In this document: positions 3,786 through 36,174 of the stretch, piece by piece
Layout of the letters: the number at the start of each line of letters is the position of its first letter
How positions within the stretch are numbered: position 1 is the first letter of the stretch
Source of the DNA: an uncultured Gammaproteobacteria bacterium
Lineage (GTDB): Bacteria > Patescibacteriota > Microgenomatia > 2-02-FULL-39-11
Length of the DNA stretch: 64,000 nucleotides
Direction: 5' to 3'
Assembly: GCA_964354025.1 (NCBI GenBank)
Contig: CAYGXQ010000001.1
Location: forward strand, 70,567-134,566
Position numbers and translations under genes: made by a program
The notes under the pieces: generated by a model
What the model saw: only the letters and a program-made list of their open reading frames with translations
The model's database searches: none
Told to the model about the DNA's origin: nothing

Positions 3786-5387
3786 ATGAAATTGTATAAA
3801 TATCCGCTGCTTTTTATTGTATTACTTTTTACCTTTGTCGTTTTTTTCCACTCAGACGGAGCCATCTTACAGGATTTGGGCCGCCATCTGACTTTGGGAA
3901 AAATTATCTGGCAAACCGGAAAAATCCCCGCCACCAATTTATTTTCCTATACTTATCCCGACTTTCCCGTTCTTGATCATCACTGGGGCAGCCAAGTGTT
4001 ATTTTACCTTGTTGAAGTGGCTTTTTCCATCAATGGCCTGATTATCCTGAAATTATTATTGGTGATGGCCGCCGTCGGTCTCGTTTCCTTCTTTACAGTT
4101 AAACGGGGAGACGGATTGGCATATCTGATCTCCGGTTTTTTGGCTCTTGAGATTTTGCGCGACCGGACGCAGATCCGGCCGGAGATATTTGCCTTTTTGT
4201 TTTTTTCGATTTTTTTAGTCATTTTATACAGAGAAAAAGAAAAACCGGGAAGGGGGATTTGGCTGCTGCCTCTCGTCGAAATCCTTTGGACAAACCTGCA
4301 CATCAGTTTTGTATACGGTTTGGCGGTCTTCGGTTGTTTCGCCCTGGAGAGAATACTGATGGCAAAATTCAGAAAGCATTATCTATATATAGGATTAGCG
4401 TTAGCCGTGTCGGTTTTGATAAACCCCTACGGCATAAACGGCGCTTTATACCCTCTGCGGATTTTCCAAAATTACGGCTATCCGATCGTTGAGAACCAGT
4501 CGGTCCTTTTTCTTTCTTCAATGATAAAAAATAATGCCCTTTTCTATTTTAAAGCTGCGGCAATAATATTTCTTGGCATATTGCCGTTATTAATATTTAA
4601 AAAGAAATATTTTGAATTATTGACCGCCGGACTTTTTTGCGGTTTATCCTGGCTGGCGGTAAGGAATTTCCCCTTTTTCGCCATTTCTTTTATTTATCCT
4701 TTGTCTTTAGGCGTCAGTTATTTATTGGAGAAAATTAAAGAAAACAAAATCCTCCCGCCGGACAATTTTCAACTGCTGCGGATTTTTTCTGTTTTGGCGT
4801 TAATCATTTTTGTCTTTTGGGAAATGTATCTGACGGTTTCCAATAAATACTATGATGCTTATAGCGCGCCGGTGCGATTTGGCTTGGGACAAGTCAGCGG
4901 GGAAAAAGGAGCGCTTGATTATTTTTTGGCCAACAACCTGAAAGGCCCGGTCTATAACAGTTTTGATAACGGCAGTTACCTCATCTACCGGTTGTATCCG
5001 AAGGAAAGAGTTTTTACCGACGGCCGGCCGGAGGCCTATCCGGCTGATTTTTTTCAAAAAACCTATATTCCAATGCAGGAAAAAGAAGAGGTCTGGAGAG
5101 AGATTGACCGGAAATACCAGTTTCAGACGATTATTTTTCCCCATACGGATGCGACTCCCTGGGGGAAAAATTTCTTGAAAAGGATCGTTAATGACGGGAA
5201 TTGGCAAGTCAGATATTTGGATGATTATTCGCTGGTTCTTTCACGAAGGGCAGGAACGGTGAAAGACAGCGGTGCTCAAAATTTGGCCGAGATAAAAAAA
5301 CAGGGTCTGGAGTTATTTAAAAAGATAAATCAACAGGATGGCATAAACCGTTTGCGGAGTTTCTTTGATCTGATAGGACTCCGTTAA
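3786..5387 (+). CDS. polytopic membrane protein with C-terminal soluble domain, unknown function (possibly GT-C like)
   Basis: Long ORF, multiple hydrophobic segments in N-terminal two thirds. ATG at 3786 preferred over the TTG at 3765 used by the track. Confidence 0.5.
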   Translation: MKLYKYPLLFIVLLFTFVVFFHSDGAILQDLGRHLTLGKIIWQTGKIPATNLFSYTYPDFPVLDHHWGSQVLFYLVEVAFSINGLIILKLLLVMAAVGLVSFFTVKRGDGLAYLISGFLALEILRDRTQIRPEIFAFLFFSIFLVILYREKEKPGRGIWLLPLVEILWTNLHISFVYGLAVFGCFALERILMAKFRKHYLYIGLALAVSVLINPYGINGALYPLRIFQNYGYPIVENQSVLFLSSMIKNNALFYFKAAAIIFLGILPLLIFKKKYFELLTAGLFCGLSWLAVRNFPFFAISFIYPLSLGVSYLLEKIKENKILPPDNFQLLRIFSVLALIIFVFWEMYLTVSNKYYDAYSAPVRFGLGQVSGEKGALDYFLANNLKGPVYNSFDNGSYLIYRLYPKERVFTDGRPEAYPADFFQKTYIPMQEKEEVWREIDRKYQFQTIIFPHTDATPWGKNFLKRIVNDGNWQVRYLDDYSLVLSRRAGTVKDSGAQNLAEIKKQGLELFKKINQQDGINRLRSFFDLIGLR

Positions 5388-9671: not shown

Positions 9672-9974
9672 ATGGTTATTAAGCCAAATTCTATCAAACC
9701 GCTTTTTGATTACGTTCTCGTCAAACCCCTTGAAGAAGAAACCAAAACCCCGGGCGGAATATTGCTTCCCGATACAGTCAAAGAAAAACCCCAGATGGGT
9801 CAGGTCATGGCGATCGGTCCGGGAACAACAGACGATAAAGGTCATCCGGTAAAAGTTTTAGTCAAAGCCGGCCAAAAAGTGATGTACAAAAAATGGGGCG
9901 GCAACGAAATCAAAGTCGAAGGCAAAGAATGGTTGCTGGTCGAACAAAAAGATATCTTAGCTGTTATTGAATAA
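9672..9974 (+). CDS. groES: co-chaperonin GroES
   Basis: MVIKPNSIKPLFDYVLVKP...TPGGILLPDT...VEQKDILAVIE. RBS AAAGGAGGT at 9655-9663. Confidence 0.95.
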   Translation: MVIKPNSIKPLFDYVLVKPLEEETKTPGGILLPDTVKEKPQMGQVMAIGPGTTDDKGHPVKVLVKAGQKVMYKKWGGNEIKVEGKEWLLVEQKDILAVIE

Positions 9975-10106
9975 TAATTGTTATAAAGGTTAAGCCCGCC
10001 TGCTCTTACTTCTCGCCTTACCTACTATTCGTAGCGCGGCTCGAAGAGCGAGCTTAGGCGGGTTCAAGAAACTGTAATCCCGATAAGATCGGGAAACAGT
10101 TTCTAG

Positions 10107-11774
<1,668 letters not shown>

Positions 11775-11796
11775 AGTAATCAAAAATTATCAAAAT

Positions 11797-11829
11797 CAAA
11801 AAGTCCCGAGTCTACCTCGGGACTTTTTA
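11797..11829. terminator. bidirectional rho-independent terminator
   Basis: A-tract, stem gtcccgag / ctcgggac with 5-nt loop, then TTTTTA. Lies between convergent groEL and the minus-strand gene at 11849. Confidence 0.7.
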
Positions 11830-11848
11830 TATAGTTGATTTAGTCTCT

Positions 11849-12238
11849 TCACCATGAATTTATAATTGGAGTAACAGGAGATTTTATATTTTGTTGGAAA
11901 AAAAGAGATTTTTCTGATAAAAACGCGTATATTATAAACATATCAAGAAGTAGCGGAATAATTAAGAACAATGAGAAAGAGAAGATAAATGACAGGATAT
12001 TACCGATAGTGGTAAGAGTAATAGTTACTACTCCTGCGTACCAACTCCATTTTTTATGTCTTCTGATTGCAGAACCCAGGAAAAAAGAATAAATTCCTAA
12101 AATTAGTGCTATAAAACCCTGCCAGATTTGGCTGAGACTATCTACTTGACCACCACTAAAAAGTAATGGAAACAATACCATTACAATAAAAGAGAAAATA
12201 AATATCGGAGCTACAATTATAAACAGTAAAAAATACAC
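11849..12238 (-). CDS. small polytopic membrane protein, hypothetical
   Basis: 129 aa, about four hydrophobic helices. The predicted start is a GTG inside the flanking palindrome, so the true start is uncertain. Confidence 0.35.
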   Translation of the reverse strand: MYFLLFIIVAPIFIFSFIVMVLFPLLFSGGQVDSLSQIWQGFIALILGIYSFFLGSAIRRHKKWSWYAGVVTITLTTIGNILSFIFSFSLFLIIPLLLDMFIIYAFLSEKSLFFQQNIKSPVTPIINSW

Positions 12239-13008
12239 ACCAGGTGTGTATTAGCTTGACATATACGGGAAACTGATATAAATTGTAGTCATGCCGTACC
12301 GTAAGACCGTATTTGCTTGCGGAGAATATTACCACATTTACAACAGAGGCGTTGCTTATCAGCCGATTTATAAAAATAAAAGGGATTATGAAAGATTTTT
12401 ATTAACGCTTTCATATTACCGATTTCGGGACTGCCCGGTCAGACTTTCAAAATTATTGCTGACTCCTAAAGAAATCAGAGACGATATATTATCAGCCTTA
12501 GCTAAAGACAATAGTAAAAGAATAGAAATTCTTGCATATTGTCTTATGCCAAATCATTTTCATTTGCTTATTCAGCAAATCAAAGAAGGTGGAATATCAA
12601 AATATCTGCGTCAGTCAATAAATAGTTATGCAAAATACTTTAATACGAAATACAAAAGAGTAGGATCTCTTTTTCAGGATATGTTTAAGGCTGTCCGGAT
12701 AGAATCAGATGAGCAGCTTATACATGTTTCGCGATATATTCACCTTAATCCACTCGTTTCCTATTTGGTCAATCGAGAGGAACTACCCGAGTATCCTTGG
12801 TCATCACTGCAATCATATTTGGGAAAATCTGACTCTGATTTGGTAGTCGCGGAAACTGTTTTGGCCAATTTTAAAAACAAAAAGGAGTATATGCAATTTA
12901 TACTTGATCAGGAAGATTACGGAAAAAAGTTAGAACATATTAAACATCTTATGCTTGACGGAACATAATAATCCGTATGTGCAAACGTAATACACACCTG
13001 GTGTGTAT
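12233..13008 (+). mobile_element. HUH Y1 transposase gene (RAYT/IS200-like) flanked by inverted copies of a 19-bp palindrome
   Basis: atacacaccAGGtgtgtat at 12233-12251 and its reverse complement atacacaccTGGtgtgtat at 12990-13008 bracket the CDS. Confidence 0.7.
12291..12968 (+). CDS. REP-associated tyrosine transposase-like HUH endonuclease (Y1 transposase fold)
   Basis: HUH motif NHFHLLIQ and catalytic Tyr context SRYIHLNPL (compare RAYT YIHYNP). Own promoter TTGACA 12256-12261, ATAAAT about 12278-12283. Confidence 0.75.
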   Translation: MPYRKTVFACGEYYHIYNRGVAYQPIYKNKRDYERFLLTLSYYRFRDCPVRLSKLLLTPKEIRDDILSALAKDNSKRIEILAYCLMPNHFHLLIQQIKEGGISKYLRQSINSYAKYFNTKYKRVGSLFQDMFKAVRIESDEQLIHVSRYIHLNPLVSYLVNREELPEYPWSSLQSYLGKSDSDLVVAETVLANFKNKKEYMQFILDQEDYGKKLEHIKHLMLDGT

Positions 13009-13047
13009 GGTGTTGAAAAAAGGGTAGTTGGATGGTATAGTGAAGTC

Positions 13048-13896
13048 ATGAATAAGAAGGCTATCCTGATAGTCATTCTCTTTATTTCCGGTTTGGCAAT
13101 CGGCGGCTATAAACTCTTAAGCGCTCGCTCCATATCCAATTCCGGCATAAAAATAGCTTCTGTTCCTTCGGCCAGTGTTTTCTTAAACGACAAACTGGTC
13201 GGTAAAACCCCATATGAGGACAAATATCCGCCGGGAAAATATGTCGTCAAACTCATCCCCGAGGACACTTCCGCTAATTATTCTTCCTGGCAGGGAGAAG
13301 TTACCCTTAATTCCTCACTTTTGACCTATCTGAAACGGGAACTGGGTCCCAGTGAACTGCTTTCAGGCGGTGAGACTCTGACTTTAAGCAAGATTTCTAC
13401 GGCCACCGAGGCGCAAATTGACGTTTCTTCCCAGCCGGACGGAGCGAGAGTAATTTTTGACGGACAGGAAAAAGGGATGTCACCGGTTCTGATCCGCGAA
13501 GTTTCGCAGGGAGAGCATGATGTTTCGGTTTCTTCTCCCGGCTTCGTTCCGCGGACGATCAGGGCGCAGGTGACTTTAGGTTACAAACTCAATACCGCTT
13601 TTCAGCTGGCACTCCTTCCGAGCCAGCCGGCAACCGAATCGGGGGAAGTGACGACTACTCCCACTCCTCCTTCGAAAGAAAAGAGCGGTCAGGACAAGAC
13701 GGAAGTAACGATTAAAGATACGCCGACCGGATTTTTACGGGTCAGAAGCGGACCAAGCAGAAGTGCTTCCGAGGTCGCCCAGGTGAAACCGAAGGAAAAG
13801 TACTCCCTTTTGGACGAACAGAGCGGTTGGTACAAGATTGCTTATCTGGAGGGGAAAGAGGGTTGGATATCAAGCGCTTACGCTGAGAAGAACTAA
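13048..13896 (+). CDS. PEGA-domain protein with C-terminal SH3b-like domain, membrane anchored
   Basis: Two PEGA-like units (ASVFLNDKLVGKTPY ; GARVIFDGQEKGMSPV). C-terminal GFLRVRSGPS...SGWYKIAY...GWISSAY is SH3_3-like. Start taken at MNKKAILIV; the track start is a GTG inside the palindrome. Confidence 0.6.
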   Translation: MNKKAILIVILFISGLAIGGYKLLSARSISNSGIKIASVPSASVFLNDKLVGKTPYEDKYPPGKYVVKLIPEDTSANYSSWQGEVTLNSSLLTYLKRELGPSELLSGGETLTLSKISTATEAQIDVSSQPDGARVIFDGQEKGMSPVLIREVSQGEHDVSVSSPGFVPRTIRAQVTLGYKLNTAFQLALLPSQPATESGEVTTTPTPPSKEKSGQDKTEVTIKDTPTGFLRVRSGPSRSASEVAQVKPKEKYSLLDEQSGWYKIAYLEGKEGWISSAYAEKN

Positions 13897-14933
13897 TTGG
13901 ACAATTCTTTCTCATCCGGCAGTTTTCTGATCAGATTTACCCAAAAGATAAATCCCACAATAATGACCATCACCAATATCGTTACGAATACTTTCTGTTT
14001 CGAATTTAACATCAAAGCAAAGATGCCGAAAGCGGCGGTGATGAGCCAATAAAAAACGGCAATTTTTCGCTTCCCCCAACCCAACCGCAGCAGGTGATGA
14101 TGAAGGTGTTCCCGGGTGGCCCGAACCGGTGATTTATGGCTGACAATTCTTTTAAATAACATAAAAACGGCATCAGTCATCGGCATGGCCAAGACTAAAA
14201 GAGCCGTTCCTAATTTGCTGAAAGCCATAATGGAAAGGATAGCCAGTAAAAACCCGGCAAGAGTTTTGCCTCCGTATCCGGGCATAATTTTTTGCGGATA
14301 ATAATTCCACGGCAAAAAACCAAGGAAAGCGCCAGCGGTGAGAAAAGAAAGGACAAGAACCGGCAGTTGTTGCGGATCCAAAAGAGCGAAGCGCAGGGAC
14401 AAGAGTCCGATAATGACTGCCGCAATCGAGACAAAGCCGGGCAGTTGTCCGTCAACTCCTCCGGACCAGCCGATGATATTAGTCGTCCAGATGATCCAGA
14501 TGAAAGCAAGCAGATTTCCCGCCCCGGGAGAAAGCGGGAGGATACCGCCGAAAGGATTAGTGATGTAAGGGATAGTGACGCCGGATGAGACAACGATGAC
14601 AGCGGCCAGGCAGTTGGTAAAAAAGCGAAGATAAGGAGAGCGGTCTTTTCTGTCATCCCAAAGACCGACGGCAATCAAAATGACAGAGGCGATGAAGATG
14701 CCGATGATCTGTTTCATCTGCGGATATAGCAAAACCAGCGGCCAAAAGATGCCGATAAAAATGGCCAGGCCGCCGGCGCGCGGAATTATTCCCTGATGGG
14801 TGTGGGCGGGATGGGGACGGATTTTGGGATTATCTACCAGTTGGAAACGGAGGGCGATTTTTATCACATAAGGAGTAATCAGATAGGTGATGATGGCCGA
14901 AGTGATGATAGACCAGAGAATTAAAAATAGCAT
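13893..14933 (-). CDS. family 4 glycosyltransferase, polyprenyl-phosphate N-acetylhexosamine-1-phosphate transferase (MraY/WecA family)
   Basis: About ten TM segments; GLWDDRKD, NIIGWSGGVDGQ and HLHHHL motifs typical of MraY/WecA-type enzymes. Confidence 0.65.
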   Translation of the reverse strand: MLFLILWSIITSAIITYLITPYVIKIALRFQLVDNPKIRPHPAHTHQGIIPRAGGLAIFIGIFWPLVLLYPQMKQIIGIFIASVILIAVGLWDDRKDRSPYLRFFTNCLAAVIVVSSGVTIPYITNPFGGILPLSPGAGNLLAFIWIIWTTNIIGWSGGVDGQLPGFVSIAAVIIGLLSLRFALLDPQQLPVLVLSFLTAGAFLGFLPWNYYPQKIMPGYGGKTLAGFLLAILSIMAFSKLGTALLVLAMPMTDAVFMLFKRIVSHKSPVRATREHLHHHLLRLGWGKRKIAVFYWLITAAFGIFALMLNSKQKVFVTILVMVIIVGFIFWVNLIRKLPDEKELSN

Positions 14934-15311
14934 TTAAGTGACCAGAAAAATAATTTTTAAACAGGCGATCAGGAACAGAAAAGAAACTACCGTCCCTGAA
15001 ATAACCAGAAGATAAGCGGCGGTTTTCCTAGTTTCAAAGATGCCGGCCGCCAGAAAAAAATTGAGGGAAAAAAAGATGATAGAAAAAAGAAACGGGATAA
15101 AAATGCCGTAAGGGGAAGTAAGCTGCTCTACGCCTCTGGGGAGAGAGTAAAAAAGCGGCAATTGCGGCGGGAGTTTGTTCCATTTGAAGATGATGGCGAT
15201 CAGAAAAACCGCGATAATCCCCAAAAAGATCCTGATTAAATTTTCCGCCAGTTTATCTTTTAATAATACTTTAATCTTTTCTTTCATATCAGCGGATGAG
15301 AAGCAGGTCAT
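14934..15311 (-). CDS. small membrane protein, hypothetical
   Basis: 125 aa, three hydrophobic helices, co-directional with the GT genes. Confidence 0.4.
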   Translation of the reverse strand: MTCFSSADMKEKIKVLLKDKLAENLIRIFLGIIAVFLIAIIFKWNKLPPQLPLFYSLPRGVEQLTSPYGIFIPFLFSIIFFSLNFFLAAGIFETRKTAAYLLVISGTVVSFLFLIACLKIIFLVT

Positions 15312-16587
15312 AAGTCGCGTTATCTTTCATAAGATAAGTTTTTGAAGGCGGAGGAGGAAAATCCGCCCTGGAAACAGCCGGAAAAACGACGTTGACGCCG
15401 ATATAATCAGGAACGGTGATGCTATTGGGATTATAGATAAATACTTTTTCCGGGAATTTATAATAAAAAGCGGATTCCAAAAAAGCAATCGGAGTTTGGG
15501 TATAAACAAAATCAGACGCTTCAGCATTTTTGTTTATTTCCGAAAAAGCGCTCTTGAAATCGGTTTTGCGGTGACCCGGGACCAGGGCGATATCGATAAC
15601 AATGACTAAAAGAAGAAAAGCAGCGGCGGTAAAATTTCTCAATAATTTGTTTTTAATGCTCCAGATGCCCAAAGAGATGCCGAAGATTTCAAAAACAGTG
15701 ATAAAAATAAAATAGCGGTTGACATAAATCGGCCGGCGAAGATATGAATAGCCCAAAACTCCAAATAAGGTAAAAAATATCGGCGTCAAAAATAACAAAG
15801 CCTGTTTCTTATTTTGCCGAAATCCTATCCAGAAGAAAACAAGGATGATGACTGAAAGCCAAAAAGTCAAAGGCCACCAGTTGCCCGGCGTGCCTTCGAA
15901 GTTGGTAAAAAGATTGCCCAAAACTGATTTAACCAGTTGCAGGTCAACCGGGAAGATCCAGGAATCTTTTGAACGTATAAATTGATTTATGAGGACCGGC
16001 AGCCAGGGAAGGAAGAAAAGCAGCGGTTTGGCGGTATTGATTATCAGCCTGCGGTGGTTTTGTTTGGTCAGAAAATAATAAATGATGAAAGATACGGGGA
16101 TAAGGATAAAAAATGACTGGGTGTAAAGTCCCAGGACAGTCGCAACTAAATACCCTTTCCACTCTTTTTTGTACCAGAAATATAAGGAACAAACGGTAAA
16201 CAGGGCATAAAAAGAATACATCCGGATTTCAAAAGCGTAATAGAGAAGCATCGGGTTGAAAAAAGTGAAAGCGGCAACATATAGGGCAAAGCGGCGGGAA
16301 AAGATTTTCTCCGCCAGAAGCGAGGCCACATAAACACTGATAACGAAAGCCAGAAAAGAAAGCAGTCTCAGTCCTACGTCTGATTTGCCGACGATTTGCA
16401 TCCACAAATGCAAAATCAGGTAATAAAAAGGAGGGTTAAAATCATGGGCGGTATTGCTGATGATCTTTATCAGATCCGGTTTAGCCATAAAATATGAAAA
16501 AGCCTCGTCCCGCCAAATTGACTGGATCAGATAAAAAAGCGGTGTTTGGTAGAAAATATAATTAACAATATTCATTTTGTATTCCAA
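15289..16587 (-). CDS. GT-C fold glycosyltransferase (ArnT/PMT family 39/83-like)
   Basis: Polytopic; early DEAFSY loop motif characteristic of ArnT/PMT-type GT-C enzymes. Confidence 0.6.
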   Translation of the reverse strand: MEYKMNIVNYIFYQTPLFYLIQSIWRDEAFSYFMAKPDLIKIISNTAHDFNPPFYYLILHLWMQIVGKSDVGLRLLSFLAFVISVYVASLLAEKIFSRRFALYVAAFTFFNPMLLYYAFEIRMYSFYALFTVCSLYFWYKKEWKGYLVATVLGLYTQSFFILIPVSFIIYYFLTKQNHRRLIINTAKPLLFFLPWLPVLINQFIRSKDSWIFPVDLQLVKSVLGNLFTNFEGTPGNWWPLTFWLSVIILVFFWIGFRQNKKQALLFLTPIFFTLFGVLGYSYLRRPIYVNRYFIFITVFEIFGISLGIWSIKNKLLRNFTAAAFLLLVIVIDIALVPGHRKTDFKSAFSEINKNAEASDFVYTQTPIAFLESAFYYKFPEKVFIYNPNSITVPDYIGVNVVFPAVSRADFPPPPSKTYLMKDNATYDLLLIR

Positions 16588-35053: not shown

Positions 35054-36079
35054 CTATAAGTTACTTTTAATTCTAAGGAAGAGATTTCTCATTCGATGAC
35101 CAAGGTTGTAGAAACGATAAAGAACCGGATCGATGATCAGATCGTAACTGCCGATAAATTCGACCGGTTTGGGAGAAAAGCCCATCTTAAACCGGTGGAA
35201 TCCAAACCAGGGGTCAGCCGGGTTTGGTTCGGGACCCAGCGCCCCCCACATGTCAAAAATTTTGGCTCCTTTTTTTTGGCCGAAACGGATTATTTCCCAC
35301 ATAAGAAGCGTAGAAGCCATGGTATTTCTGAACCGGTCACTTGAAGCGCCATACGGATAGTACAAAACACCGTTGAAAAGAAAAACAATCCAGGAGGCCA
35401 GAATATGTTTCTGCCCTTCATGAGAATAGGTGGCGGTAAAAAGGTGGGCCATACCGCTTTTTTTCAAGGTTTCCCACATCAGACGGTGATATTTTTCGTC
35501 GTGGGCGTAGAATTTTTGCCTTCTGGTGGTTTCAAAAGTCAGTTTTAAATAATTTTCAAAAGCTTCAGGAGAATCATCTTCGGCAATTACCACTCCGTGT
35601 TTTTGGGCGACTTTGATGTTGTACCGGGTTTTGGGATGCATATTCTTTAATAGATCTTCCTCACTTTTGGTCAGGTTGAGCTGAAGAGTGTATTTGGTGA
35701 AGAGTGGATGAGATGAATTTAGAATTATGAATCTAGAATTATGAATTAAGGATTGTGATTGGGTATTAGTAATAACATTTGGTTCTAATTTTATAAATAT
35801 ACAATGGTGTTTCTTCCCCACACAATATAACTCTTCTAACATTTCGTGGGAAGGAATATGACCTTTGGGGAAATAGCCGATGGTTTTTTTGATAAACGGA
35901 ATAGGATGGAGGGTGATCTGGGCGGTTTCCGCCAATTTATTATTGATATAATTGCCCAGGCGGATTTCTTCCAAACCTGTTTTTCGGCGAAAATCCCCCC
36001 ATTCCCATGACTGAAGGGGGTGGAGAGCCAGATAGTTAAAGGCTTCTTTATCTTCGATGGTAACTGGTTTGATACTCAT
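35054..36079 (-). CDS. FemAB-family peptidoglycan branch aminoacyltransferase (second paralog)
   Basis: FemAB-like length and pattern (LLMWEIIRFGQKKGAKIFDMWG...). Start set at MSIKPVTIEDK because the upstream extension translates the palindrome pair. Confidence 0.55.
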   Translation of the reverse strand: MSIKPVTIEDKEAFNYLALHPLQSWEWGDFRRKTGLEEIRLGNYINNKLAETAQITLHPIPFIKKTIGYFPKGHIPSHEMLEELYCVGKKHHCIFIKLEPNVITNTQSQSLIHNSRFIILNSSHPLFTKYTLQLNLTKSEEDLLKNMHPKTRYNIKVAQKHGVVIAEDDSPEAFENYLKLTFETTRRQKFYAHDEKYHRLMWETLKKSGMAHLFTATYSHEGQKHILASWIVFLFNGVLYYPYGASSDRFRNTMASTLLMWEIIRFGQKKGAKIFDMWGALGPEPNPADPWFGFHRFKMGFSPKPVEFIGSYDLIIDPVLYRFYNLGHRMRNLFLRIKSNL

Positions 36080-36097
36080 AGTATATCTTGTTCTCTT

Positions 36098-36130
36098 CAC
36101 ACCGGGTGTGTGCAGCACACACCCGGTGTG
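36098..36130. repeat. pair of CACACC-N-GGTGTG palindromes in inverted orientation
   Basis: cacaccGggtgtg (36098-36110) and cacaccCggtgtg (36117-36129); same core as the palindromes flanking the Y1 transposase gene. Confidence 0.7.
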
Positions 36131-36174
36131 GTTTTAAGGCACAATGATATTTTATATGTTATCATATCTATGAT

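Follow-up and report, generated by a model that had tools for sequence, protein, structure and literature searches.

The 64-kb stretch of contig CAYGXQ010000001.1 analysed here (hereafter the window, whose own numbering is used for all coordinates) probably carries a system of the type formed by repetitive extragenic palindromic (REP) sequences and a REP-associated tyrosine transposase (RAYT), also called 'REPtron' or 'TIRtron', of a TIRYT-like branch and in a Candidatus Gottesmanbacteria-like Patescibacterium. The gene for a 225-residue protein is bracketed by two inverted hairpins and the same hairpin is found elsewhere in the window as an inverted doublet, which bears out the REP-RAYT-REP organisation claimed in an earlier note made from the letters of this DNA (the original prediction). 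Direct support exists for the protein family and its fold, for the repeat architecture and its conservation in the family, and for the presence or absence among relatives of the segment between groEL and the PEGA gene and of the doublet. Work on REP/RAYT systems has to our knowledge been confined almost wholly to Proteobacteria and a small number of other cultured groups, and full-text searches of the literature returned no paper linking RAYT, REPIN (REP doublet forming a hairpin) or 'REP-associated tyrosine' with Patescibacteria, the candidate phyla radiation (CPR), Microgenomates or Gottesmanbacteria. Systems of this sort are familiar, and both genes flanked by terminal inverted repeats (TIRs) and dimeric repeat copies are on record for the closest published class; the case described here is a real but largely ordinary example, in a lineage for which such a system had not been reported.

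The list of open reading frames (ORFs) with translations contains one forward-strand gene with the sequences PNHFHLL and RYIHLNP (Table 1), and it is in this 225-residue product that the HFHLL (HUH) and YIHLNP motifs of the original prediction are indeed present. The protein scores 41.3 bits against the Pfam family PF01797 (Y1_Tnp), the gathering score of which is 23, and in an alignment of 29 homologues H89, H91, Y149, N153 and P154 are invariant and W170-S-S is conserved as well, as is an LFQ sequence in the family. An AlphaFold2 model built on this alignment (pLDDT 88, pTM 0.86) was compared with solved structures by Foldseek, and the top match is 4er8_A (E 4.4e-6, TM-score 0.70 on the target), E. 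coli TnpA-REP (YafM) in complex with a REP hairpin, the IS608, ISDra2 and IS200 transposases ranking after it with E of about 3e-3. Identity in the structural alignment with 4ER8 is 15%; a search of the PDB with the single sequence gave no match, and a family profile reached ISDra2 TnpA and 4ER8, though weakly. The C-terminal region of about 70 residues forms three short helices in the model and has no Pfam domain of any kind, and neither a helix-turn-helix (HTH) family nor Bac_DnaA_C was found in residues 155-225 or in the whole protein (Pfam, E<=10). A Y-x-x-x-N-P tyrosine context together with HUH is described as the signature of class 2 by Quentin et al. 2018 (PMC6006769), and by motifs and modelled fold the protein is a predicted class-2 Y1 HUH enzyme of the RAYT class. 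The family is large: a word-indexed search returned more than 7,900 proteins, almost all of 221-226 residues, and an exhaustive search gave 503 clusters (50% identity) at E<=1e-30 and 9,373 at E<=1e-10.

The two 19-bp palindromes that were said to flank the gene in inverted orientation, 39 bp upstream and 21 bp downstream, can be read directly in the sequence. Their core CACACCNGGTGTG (CACACC-N-GGTGTG) has four exact matches in the window, at 12236, 12993, 36098 and 36118, where practically none is expected (no match in 100 dinucleotide-preserving shuffles of the window), and allowing two mismatches adds one further weak site. Each flanking copy folds as single-stranded DNA into a hairpin of 8-9 bp with a 3-nt loop and -6 to -7 kcal/mol, the upstream one with a 9-bp stem, -6.9 kcal/mol and a z of -2.9. 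The hairpins are the outer halves of TIR arms (12233-12268 and 12973-13008) that are 36 nt long and 86% complementary. Dispersal is confined to the hairpin core: the inner TIR sequence occurs a single time in the window, and a TIR-TIR miniature element without the gene is therefore lacking. The sequences at the feet of the four copies are ...GTAAAAA/ATACACACC, ...AAGCTA/ATACACACC, ...AACGTA/ATACACACC and ...CAACACC/ATACACACC. No part of the 64 kb reaches the gathering score of an Rfam family, and the hairpins are therefore not a known RNA element.

The same architecture recurs throughout the family. A scan with one genome per species returned 80 loci (L002-L081) with a highest identity to the query of at most 52%, many of them from metagenome-assembled genomes of the Microgenomates group (Levy-, Davies-, Curtiss-, Shapiro-, Beckwith- and Gottesmanbacteria) and many of the remaining ones under apparent placeholder names. 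These loci and the window together hold 88 full-length homologous genes, 40 of which have the same perfect palindrome, with a stem of at least 6 bp and no more than 120 nt from the gene, on both flanks, with a further 36 having one on a single flank, whereas a matching palindrome on both sides was seen for none of 553 control ORFs of at least 200 residues from the same loci. The distance from the palindrome end to the ATG has a median of 40 nt and that from the stop codon to the palindrome start a median of 16 nt. The palindrome itself varies from genome to genome, often with the CACC...GGTG centre kept, and paralogues within one genome each have their own (for instance in L068, L081 and L051); the relative orientation of the two flanking copies varies, some genomes having them inverted and others direct. 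Outside the gene flanks the locus-specific core was counted about 26 times in 1.28 Mb (L002-L081 plus the window) against about 0.1 expected, with some copies forming doublets. Furthermore, identity is only 34-64% in all 12 pairs of paralogues detected in the same genome or locus, and the family is therefore not behaving like a proliferating insertion sequence (IS). Two of the loci hold tandem paralogues (L023 10001-11650 and L052 10001-11629; 42-46% identical, separated by about 300 nt, each copy having a flanking repeat of its own), and a second paralogue lies within 1-10 kb in L026, L035, L038, L051, L068, L069 and L081.

Comparison with close relatives indicates that the REP-gene-REP module (approximately 12229-13012) has been gained or moved in this lineage. 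In L084, where the PEGA protein is 92% identical, groEL is directly followed by the PEGA gene, and the DNA is 91% identical over groEL and 89% from PEGA onward; the aligned blocks correspond to window 9815-11757 and 13013-16264 and lie only about 20 nt from each other in L084, so that the window carries an extra 1.24 kb. The more distant Gottesmanbacteria L085 and L087 likewise have groEL directly next to PEGA, in the order groES-groEL-PEGA-MraY-like. Homology to L084 resumes 4 nt past the right hairpin, and L088, which has a RAYT 91% identical to that of the window, shares only window 12229-13102, with the same right junction to PEGA and a different gene on the left that begins 4 nt outside the left hairpin. 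It follows from the L084 and L088 junctions that the module boundaries are at about 12229/12233 and 13008/13012. The same ends are found in the closest homologues on long contigs, L082 (80% identity) and L083 (65%), both of which have the core CACACCAGGTGTG and the inner sequence TAGCTTGACA...CGG upstream and CCG.ATGTGCCAAC... and CACACCTGGTGTG downstream; here similarity reaches no further than the outer limit of the hairpins, and the adjoining genes are not related to those found in the window. Partial hairpins occur next to two of these modules, namely CCCACCTGGTGTG 8 nt past the right hairpin of L082 and, outside the left hairpin of L088 (about 500-560), a tandem of two shortened left-arm copies (aaaatacaca / aaaatacacaccaggcac / full hairpin), and they may have been left behind by abortive events at the ends. 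The extra segment in the window also contains a strong terminator-like hairpin, AAAAGTCCCGAG-TCTA-CCTCGGGACTTTTT, just past groEL at about 11800-11830, and a reverse-strand gene within 11777-12238 for a DUF7144 membrane protein of 129 residues, neither of which is present in L084, L085 or L087.

The pair of palindromes that the original prediction had noticed at 36098-36130 proved to be a perfect 33-nt inverted doublet, the copies at 36098 and 36118 having the complementary loop bases G and C, and as single-stranded DNA it forms one 15-bp hairpin with -19.5 kcal/mol and a z of -7.7. It lies upstream of FemAB, and the relative L089 keeps the synteny UvrD - small gene - FemAB - PMT/TPR with a FemAB protein identity of 83% and a DNA identity of about 84%. 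The divergent start codons are about 25 nt apart in L089, while the insert in the window places the FemAB start at a distance from the shared promoter region. L090 and L091 likewise have no copy of the doublet core. The existence of relatives without the module or the doublet at the same sites means that both are insertions or deletions. An L089 segment of about 21 nt (4097-4119) aligns on both sides of the insert, to window 36130-36152 and 36067-36089, and looks like an imperfect target duplication, but we treat this as an isolated detail. A target-site duplication as a general feature was rejected, as the flank similarity of 61 inverted doublets from metagenomes was 5.97 vs 6.31 in controls.

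Table 1. Features of the window that belong to the predicted REP/RAYT-type system or adjoin it
Feature	Position	Strand	Sequence	Remarks
RAYT-class Y1 HUH gene (predicted)	12291..12968	+		HUH = H89-F-H91; predicted catalytic Tyr = Y149 in YIHLNP
Upstream REP hairpin	12233..12251		ATACACACC-A-GGTGTGTAT	19-nt palindrome, loop A, 39 nt before ATG
Downstream REP hairpin	12990..13008		ATACACACC-T-GGTGTGTAT	loop T, 21 nt after stop; inverted vs upstream copy
Left TIR arm	12233..12268		hairpin + inner TATTAGCTTGACATATACGG	from repeat search; inner part kept in L082, L083, L088
Right TIR arm	12973..13008		inner CCGTATGTGCAAACGTA + hairpin	inner part kept in L082, L083, L088
Promoter-like site	12256..12284	+	TTGACA-17-TAAATT	consensus scan 10/12; in upstream TIR arm; ends 6 nt before ATG
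REPIN-like inverted doublet	36098..36130		CACACCGGGTGTGTGC-A-GCACACACCCGGTGTG	divergent intergenic region; perfect 33-nt palindrome
65-nt segment with the 33-nt palindrome at its centre	36082..36146			FemAB promoter region; clean alignment gap in L089
Lineage-specific 1.24-kb segment	11777..13012			groEL-PEGA; terminator-like hairpin + DUF7144 gene (-) + REP-gene-REP module

Doublets of the same kind are found in metagenomes. A scan for two cores 0-30 nt apart showed that at least 120 stretches carry a doublet, and in the 80 of these that were analysed there are 89 doublets, 65 of which are inverted dimers with complementary loop bases; the commonest spacer among the matches listed is 11 nt. 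One 37-nt inverted doublet, CACACCCGGTGTGTGGGNGCCCTTCACACCGGGTGTG, occurs in at least 15 loci with different flanks and three times within 2.4 kb in L162, and it looks like the REPIN population of one organism. Its loci include L162 (1-1675), L096, L098, L104, L127, L142, L144, L147, L155, L163, L164 and L169, several of the contigs being from the same samples. At least seven doublet loci among the matches listed also encode a homologue of the protein, and in L161 the homologous gene (45% identical) has a core doublet upstream and a single copy downstream. A different arrangement was seen in L094 (687-909), which holds a tandem array with a 42-nt period and CACACCAGGTGTG in every one of at least six units, unlike the inverted doublets.

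The upstream repeat appears to be more than a flank. Of the 88 homologues, 49 have an exact TTGACA within the 70 nt before the gene, compared to 2.3% of random 70-mers, and in nearly all of these 49 genes it starts 34-38 nt before the ATG, a spacing that points to a leaderless transcript. This suggests that the gene is expressed from a leaderless promoter located in the upstream repeat, the promoter function being predicted from motif and position. The TTGACA is often followed by a half-hairpin of the form CACCTnnGG or CC(T)nnnGG, about 35 nt before the ATG (for example in L013, L014, L025, L033, L037, L039 and L040), and this half-hairpin resembles half of the hairpin of the locus itself, as with TTGACACCTCTGG beside CCACCTCTAAGGTGG. 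There is thus a hint that the promoter may be derived from a REP copy or be bound like one. The upstream hairpin also has a terminator-like score on the reverse strand, but a function as a terminator was rejected, since it sits at the start and not at the end of the neighbouring gene.

How such a system might work can be proposed from the analogous enzymes E. coli TnpA-REP and IS608 TnpA, on the basis of which we infer catalysis, hairpin binding and mobilisation in trans. The 225-residue protein would be a single-strand DNA endonuclease and ligase that binds its cognate hairpin CACACC-N-GGTGTG on transiently single-stranded DNA, and the hairpins bracketing the gene would be its recognition sites. 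It would cut near the hairpin by way of Tyr149, with His89 and His91 as metal ligands, and a 5'-phosphotyrosine link would be formed before the DNA is rejoined. The upstream repeat would in addition carry the promoter of the gene, and the enzyme acting in trans could spread short inverted REPIN-like doublets to intergenic sites such as 36098-36130.

Compared with the motifs that Quentin et al. 2018 tabulate (PMC6006769, Table 1), the protein appears to fit subclass 2.1 and not the E. coli subclass. Subclass 2.1 is Group 1 of the RAYTs as defined by Bertels et al. 2017 (PMC5581495) and is probably the TIRYT/'TIRtron' class of Di Nocera et al. 2013 (PMC3733652). Its second motif set is given as NH[YF]H, FQ, Y[IV]HLNP and SS, the last of these following the Tyr helix, with a median length of 238 residues (PMC6006769), and the window protein, with NHFH, FQ, YIHLNP and WSS, matches this set and with 225 residues comes close to the published length. 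Further likenesses to the published descriptions of subclass 2.1 and TIRYTs are the apparently low copy number with divergent intragenomic copies (34-64% identical here, a mean of 49% as published) and the TIR-flanked gene, some published TIRs being self-complementary and extra copies occurring as dimers in some genomes. There are nonetheless clear differences. The TIRs of the window have a distinct hairpin as their outer half, and it is the hairpin that is dispersed, whereas the survey (PMC6006769) states that REP-like hairpins were not found beside subclass 2.1 genes; the GGGGWSAS consensus, published for most TIRYT repeats, is not in the window TIR ATACACACCAGGTGTGTATTAGCTTGACATATACGG; the C-terminal domain, described for the class as HTH-like (Bac_DnaA_C, HTH_23 or HTH_28), has no such Pfam signal here; and Patescibacteria or Microgenomates are not among the hosts named in the accessible parts of earlier surveys.

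Likeness to E. coli TnpA-REP (subclass 2.2 or RAYT Group 2, with its REP, bacterial interspersed mosaic element and REPIN sequences) lies in the fold, this being the best structural match, in the Y-x-x-x-N-P tyrosine motif common to both, in the inverted cognate hairpins bracketing the gene, and in the existence of dispersed inverted hairpin doublets. The E. coli subclass is however characterised by DHLH, WE and YIHYNP (PMC6006769), where the window protein has NHFH for the HUH motif and FQ for the 'W' motif, and the window hairpins are short and perfect (8-9 bp), lack the GTAG guide tetranucleotide and have far fewer copies, with one dispersed site in 64 kb, the E. coli hairpins being long and bulged. 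The RAYT assignment of the original prediction is accordingly upheld as to the class, by Pfam and by the 4ER8 fold, but not as to the E. coli type, from which motifs, NCBIfam score and hairpin foot all depart.

Several observations weigh against reading the locus as a REP/RAYT-type system. The profile comparison was split, as the Pfam Y1_Tnp score lies above its cutoff but that of REP_Tyr_transpos (NF047646), the sole NCBIfam match, is 52.7 bits and below the cutoff of 80. The GTAG or GTGG tetranucleotide is absent from the hairpin foot of all four copies in the window, and a GT[AG]G 5' tetranucleotide is ascribed to the canonical REPs of subclasses 2.2, 2.4, 2.5, 2.7 and 2.8. Moreover, the 64 kb contain only one REP site that does not flank the gene, as opposed to the high copy number of classical REPs. 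A crude comparison meant to show if the metagenome doublets keep clear of genes put 54% of them in long stop-free frames vs 69% of random positions, such frames being a proxy for genes that is poor for GC-rich contigs. Finally, the module segment is present in some and absent from other close relatives, as would be expected of an autonomous IS.

The last point leads to the main alternative, that this is an autonomous IS200/IS605-like element of 0.78 kb with hairpin ends and that the doublet at 36098-36130 is its footprint or a miniature element derived from it, which we consider unlikely. The element is of IS size with a hairpin at both ends, its segment is missing between the well-conserved groEL and PEGA flanks of L084, and its ends recur in three distinct genomic contexts; absence from a close relative combined with other contexts elsewhere does amount to IS-like behaviour, and Group 1, the largest published RAYT group, is described as the most IS-like one apart from Group 6 (PMC5581495). 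The IS200 group of the IS200/IS605 family (TnpA only; structures of IS608 and ISDra2 TnpA) has in common with the window the core fold around HUH and Tyr, an element size of about 0.7-0.8 kb, a hairpin close to either end, presence or absence between related genomes and, as regards the dispersed doublets, the want of a general target duplication. Yet the IS200 proteins of subclass 1.1 are core-only, of about 150 residues, with DH[VI]H and Y..NQ (PMC6006769), while the window protein has NHFH and Y-x-x-x-N-P in place of DH[VI]H and Y-x-x-x-Q, is 225 residues long with 70 extra C-terminal ones, and has a fold nearer to TnpA-REP than to the TnpA of IS608 or ISDra2. The ends are symmetrical inverted repeats and not the asymmetric left and right ends of that family. 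In addition, the extra segment at groEL-PEGA holds an unrelated gene and the left neighbour differs in L088, so that the indel is not a clean insertion of a single element. Near-identical copies of the gene were not found, there being one copy in the 64-kb window and no close pair among the 12 paralogue pairs, and the palindrome does occur at another intergenic site.

The weakest explanation, that the palindromes serve the host as regulatory or structural signals (operators, terminators or sites of DNA-binding proteins) beside a degenerate transposase gene whose Y1 protein does not act on them, might draw on the upstream hairpin abutting a promoter-like site and being terminator-like on the reverse strand and on the doublet lying in a divergent promoter region, but a purely regulatory role is very unlikely because of the contrast of 40/88 homologues with 0/553 other genes and because the palindrome changes with the gene, both between genomes and between paralogues in one genome, and furthermore comparison with a syntenic relative shows the doublet to be an indel, the promoter region of that relative working in its absence, the upstream hairpin does not follow the end of any reverse-strand gene, and the gene is intact with invariant predicted catalytic residues.

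Returning to the REP/RAYT-type reading, a bolder version of it can be offered tentatively, though we regard it as rather doubtful: the family of about 222 residues, most genome loci of which were found in Microgenomates, could be a distinct RAYT subclass centred on Patescibacteria, with a module that is mobile as a unit, REPIN-like doublets seeded into housekeeping promoters of streamlined genomes of about 1 Mb, and a conserved leaderless promoter fused to the upstream hairpin together with a half-hairpin that would allow self-regulation, and it would then be intermediate between an IS and a domesticated RAYT. The locus and its approximately 88 homologous loci in any case present an enzyme of the motif-2.1 type that has clear cognate hairpins, inverted doublets dispersed elsewhere and gains or losses that can be dated, in the tiny genomes of the CPR, and the hairpins stand in contrast to the published report of none for Group 1 or subclass 2.1. 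Of interest to specialists are the putative leaderless promoter fused to a hairpin and the pairs of filled and empty sites in streamlined genomes, as such natural pairs help in working out where enzymes of this kind cut. The repeats furthermore mark strain-variable spots in metagenome-assembled CPR genomes.

The repeats have also left their mark on annotation. The claim that the palindromes create false GTG starts for three neighbouring ORFs agrees with the ORF list, in which starts are placed at 12238 (-), 13003 (+) and 36118 (-), and such false starts are already in database protein records, since proteins identical to the PEGA protein (P0121) and the FemAB protein (P0241) of the window use two of the palindrome GTG codons. 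P0121 is 297 residues long vs 279-282 in relatives and P0241 is 354 vs 334-342, and because the proteins of relatives are shorter, the true starts are probably the ATG at 13048 for PEGA and the reverse-strand ATG at 36079 for FemAB. The N-terminal mis-annotation of P0121 and P0241 is caused by the repeats, and the surplus parts correspond to window 13003-13047 in PEGA and 36080-36118 in FemAB.

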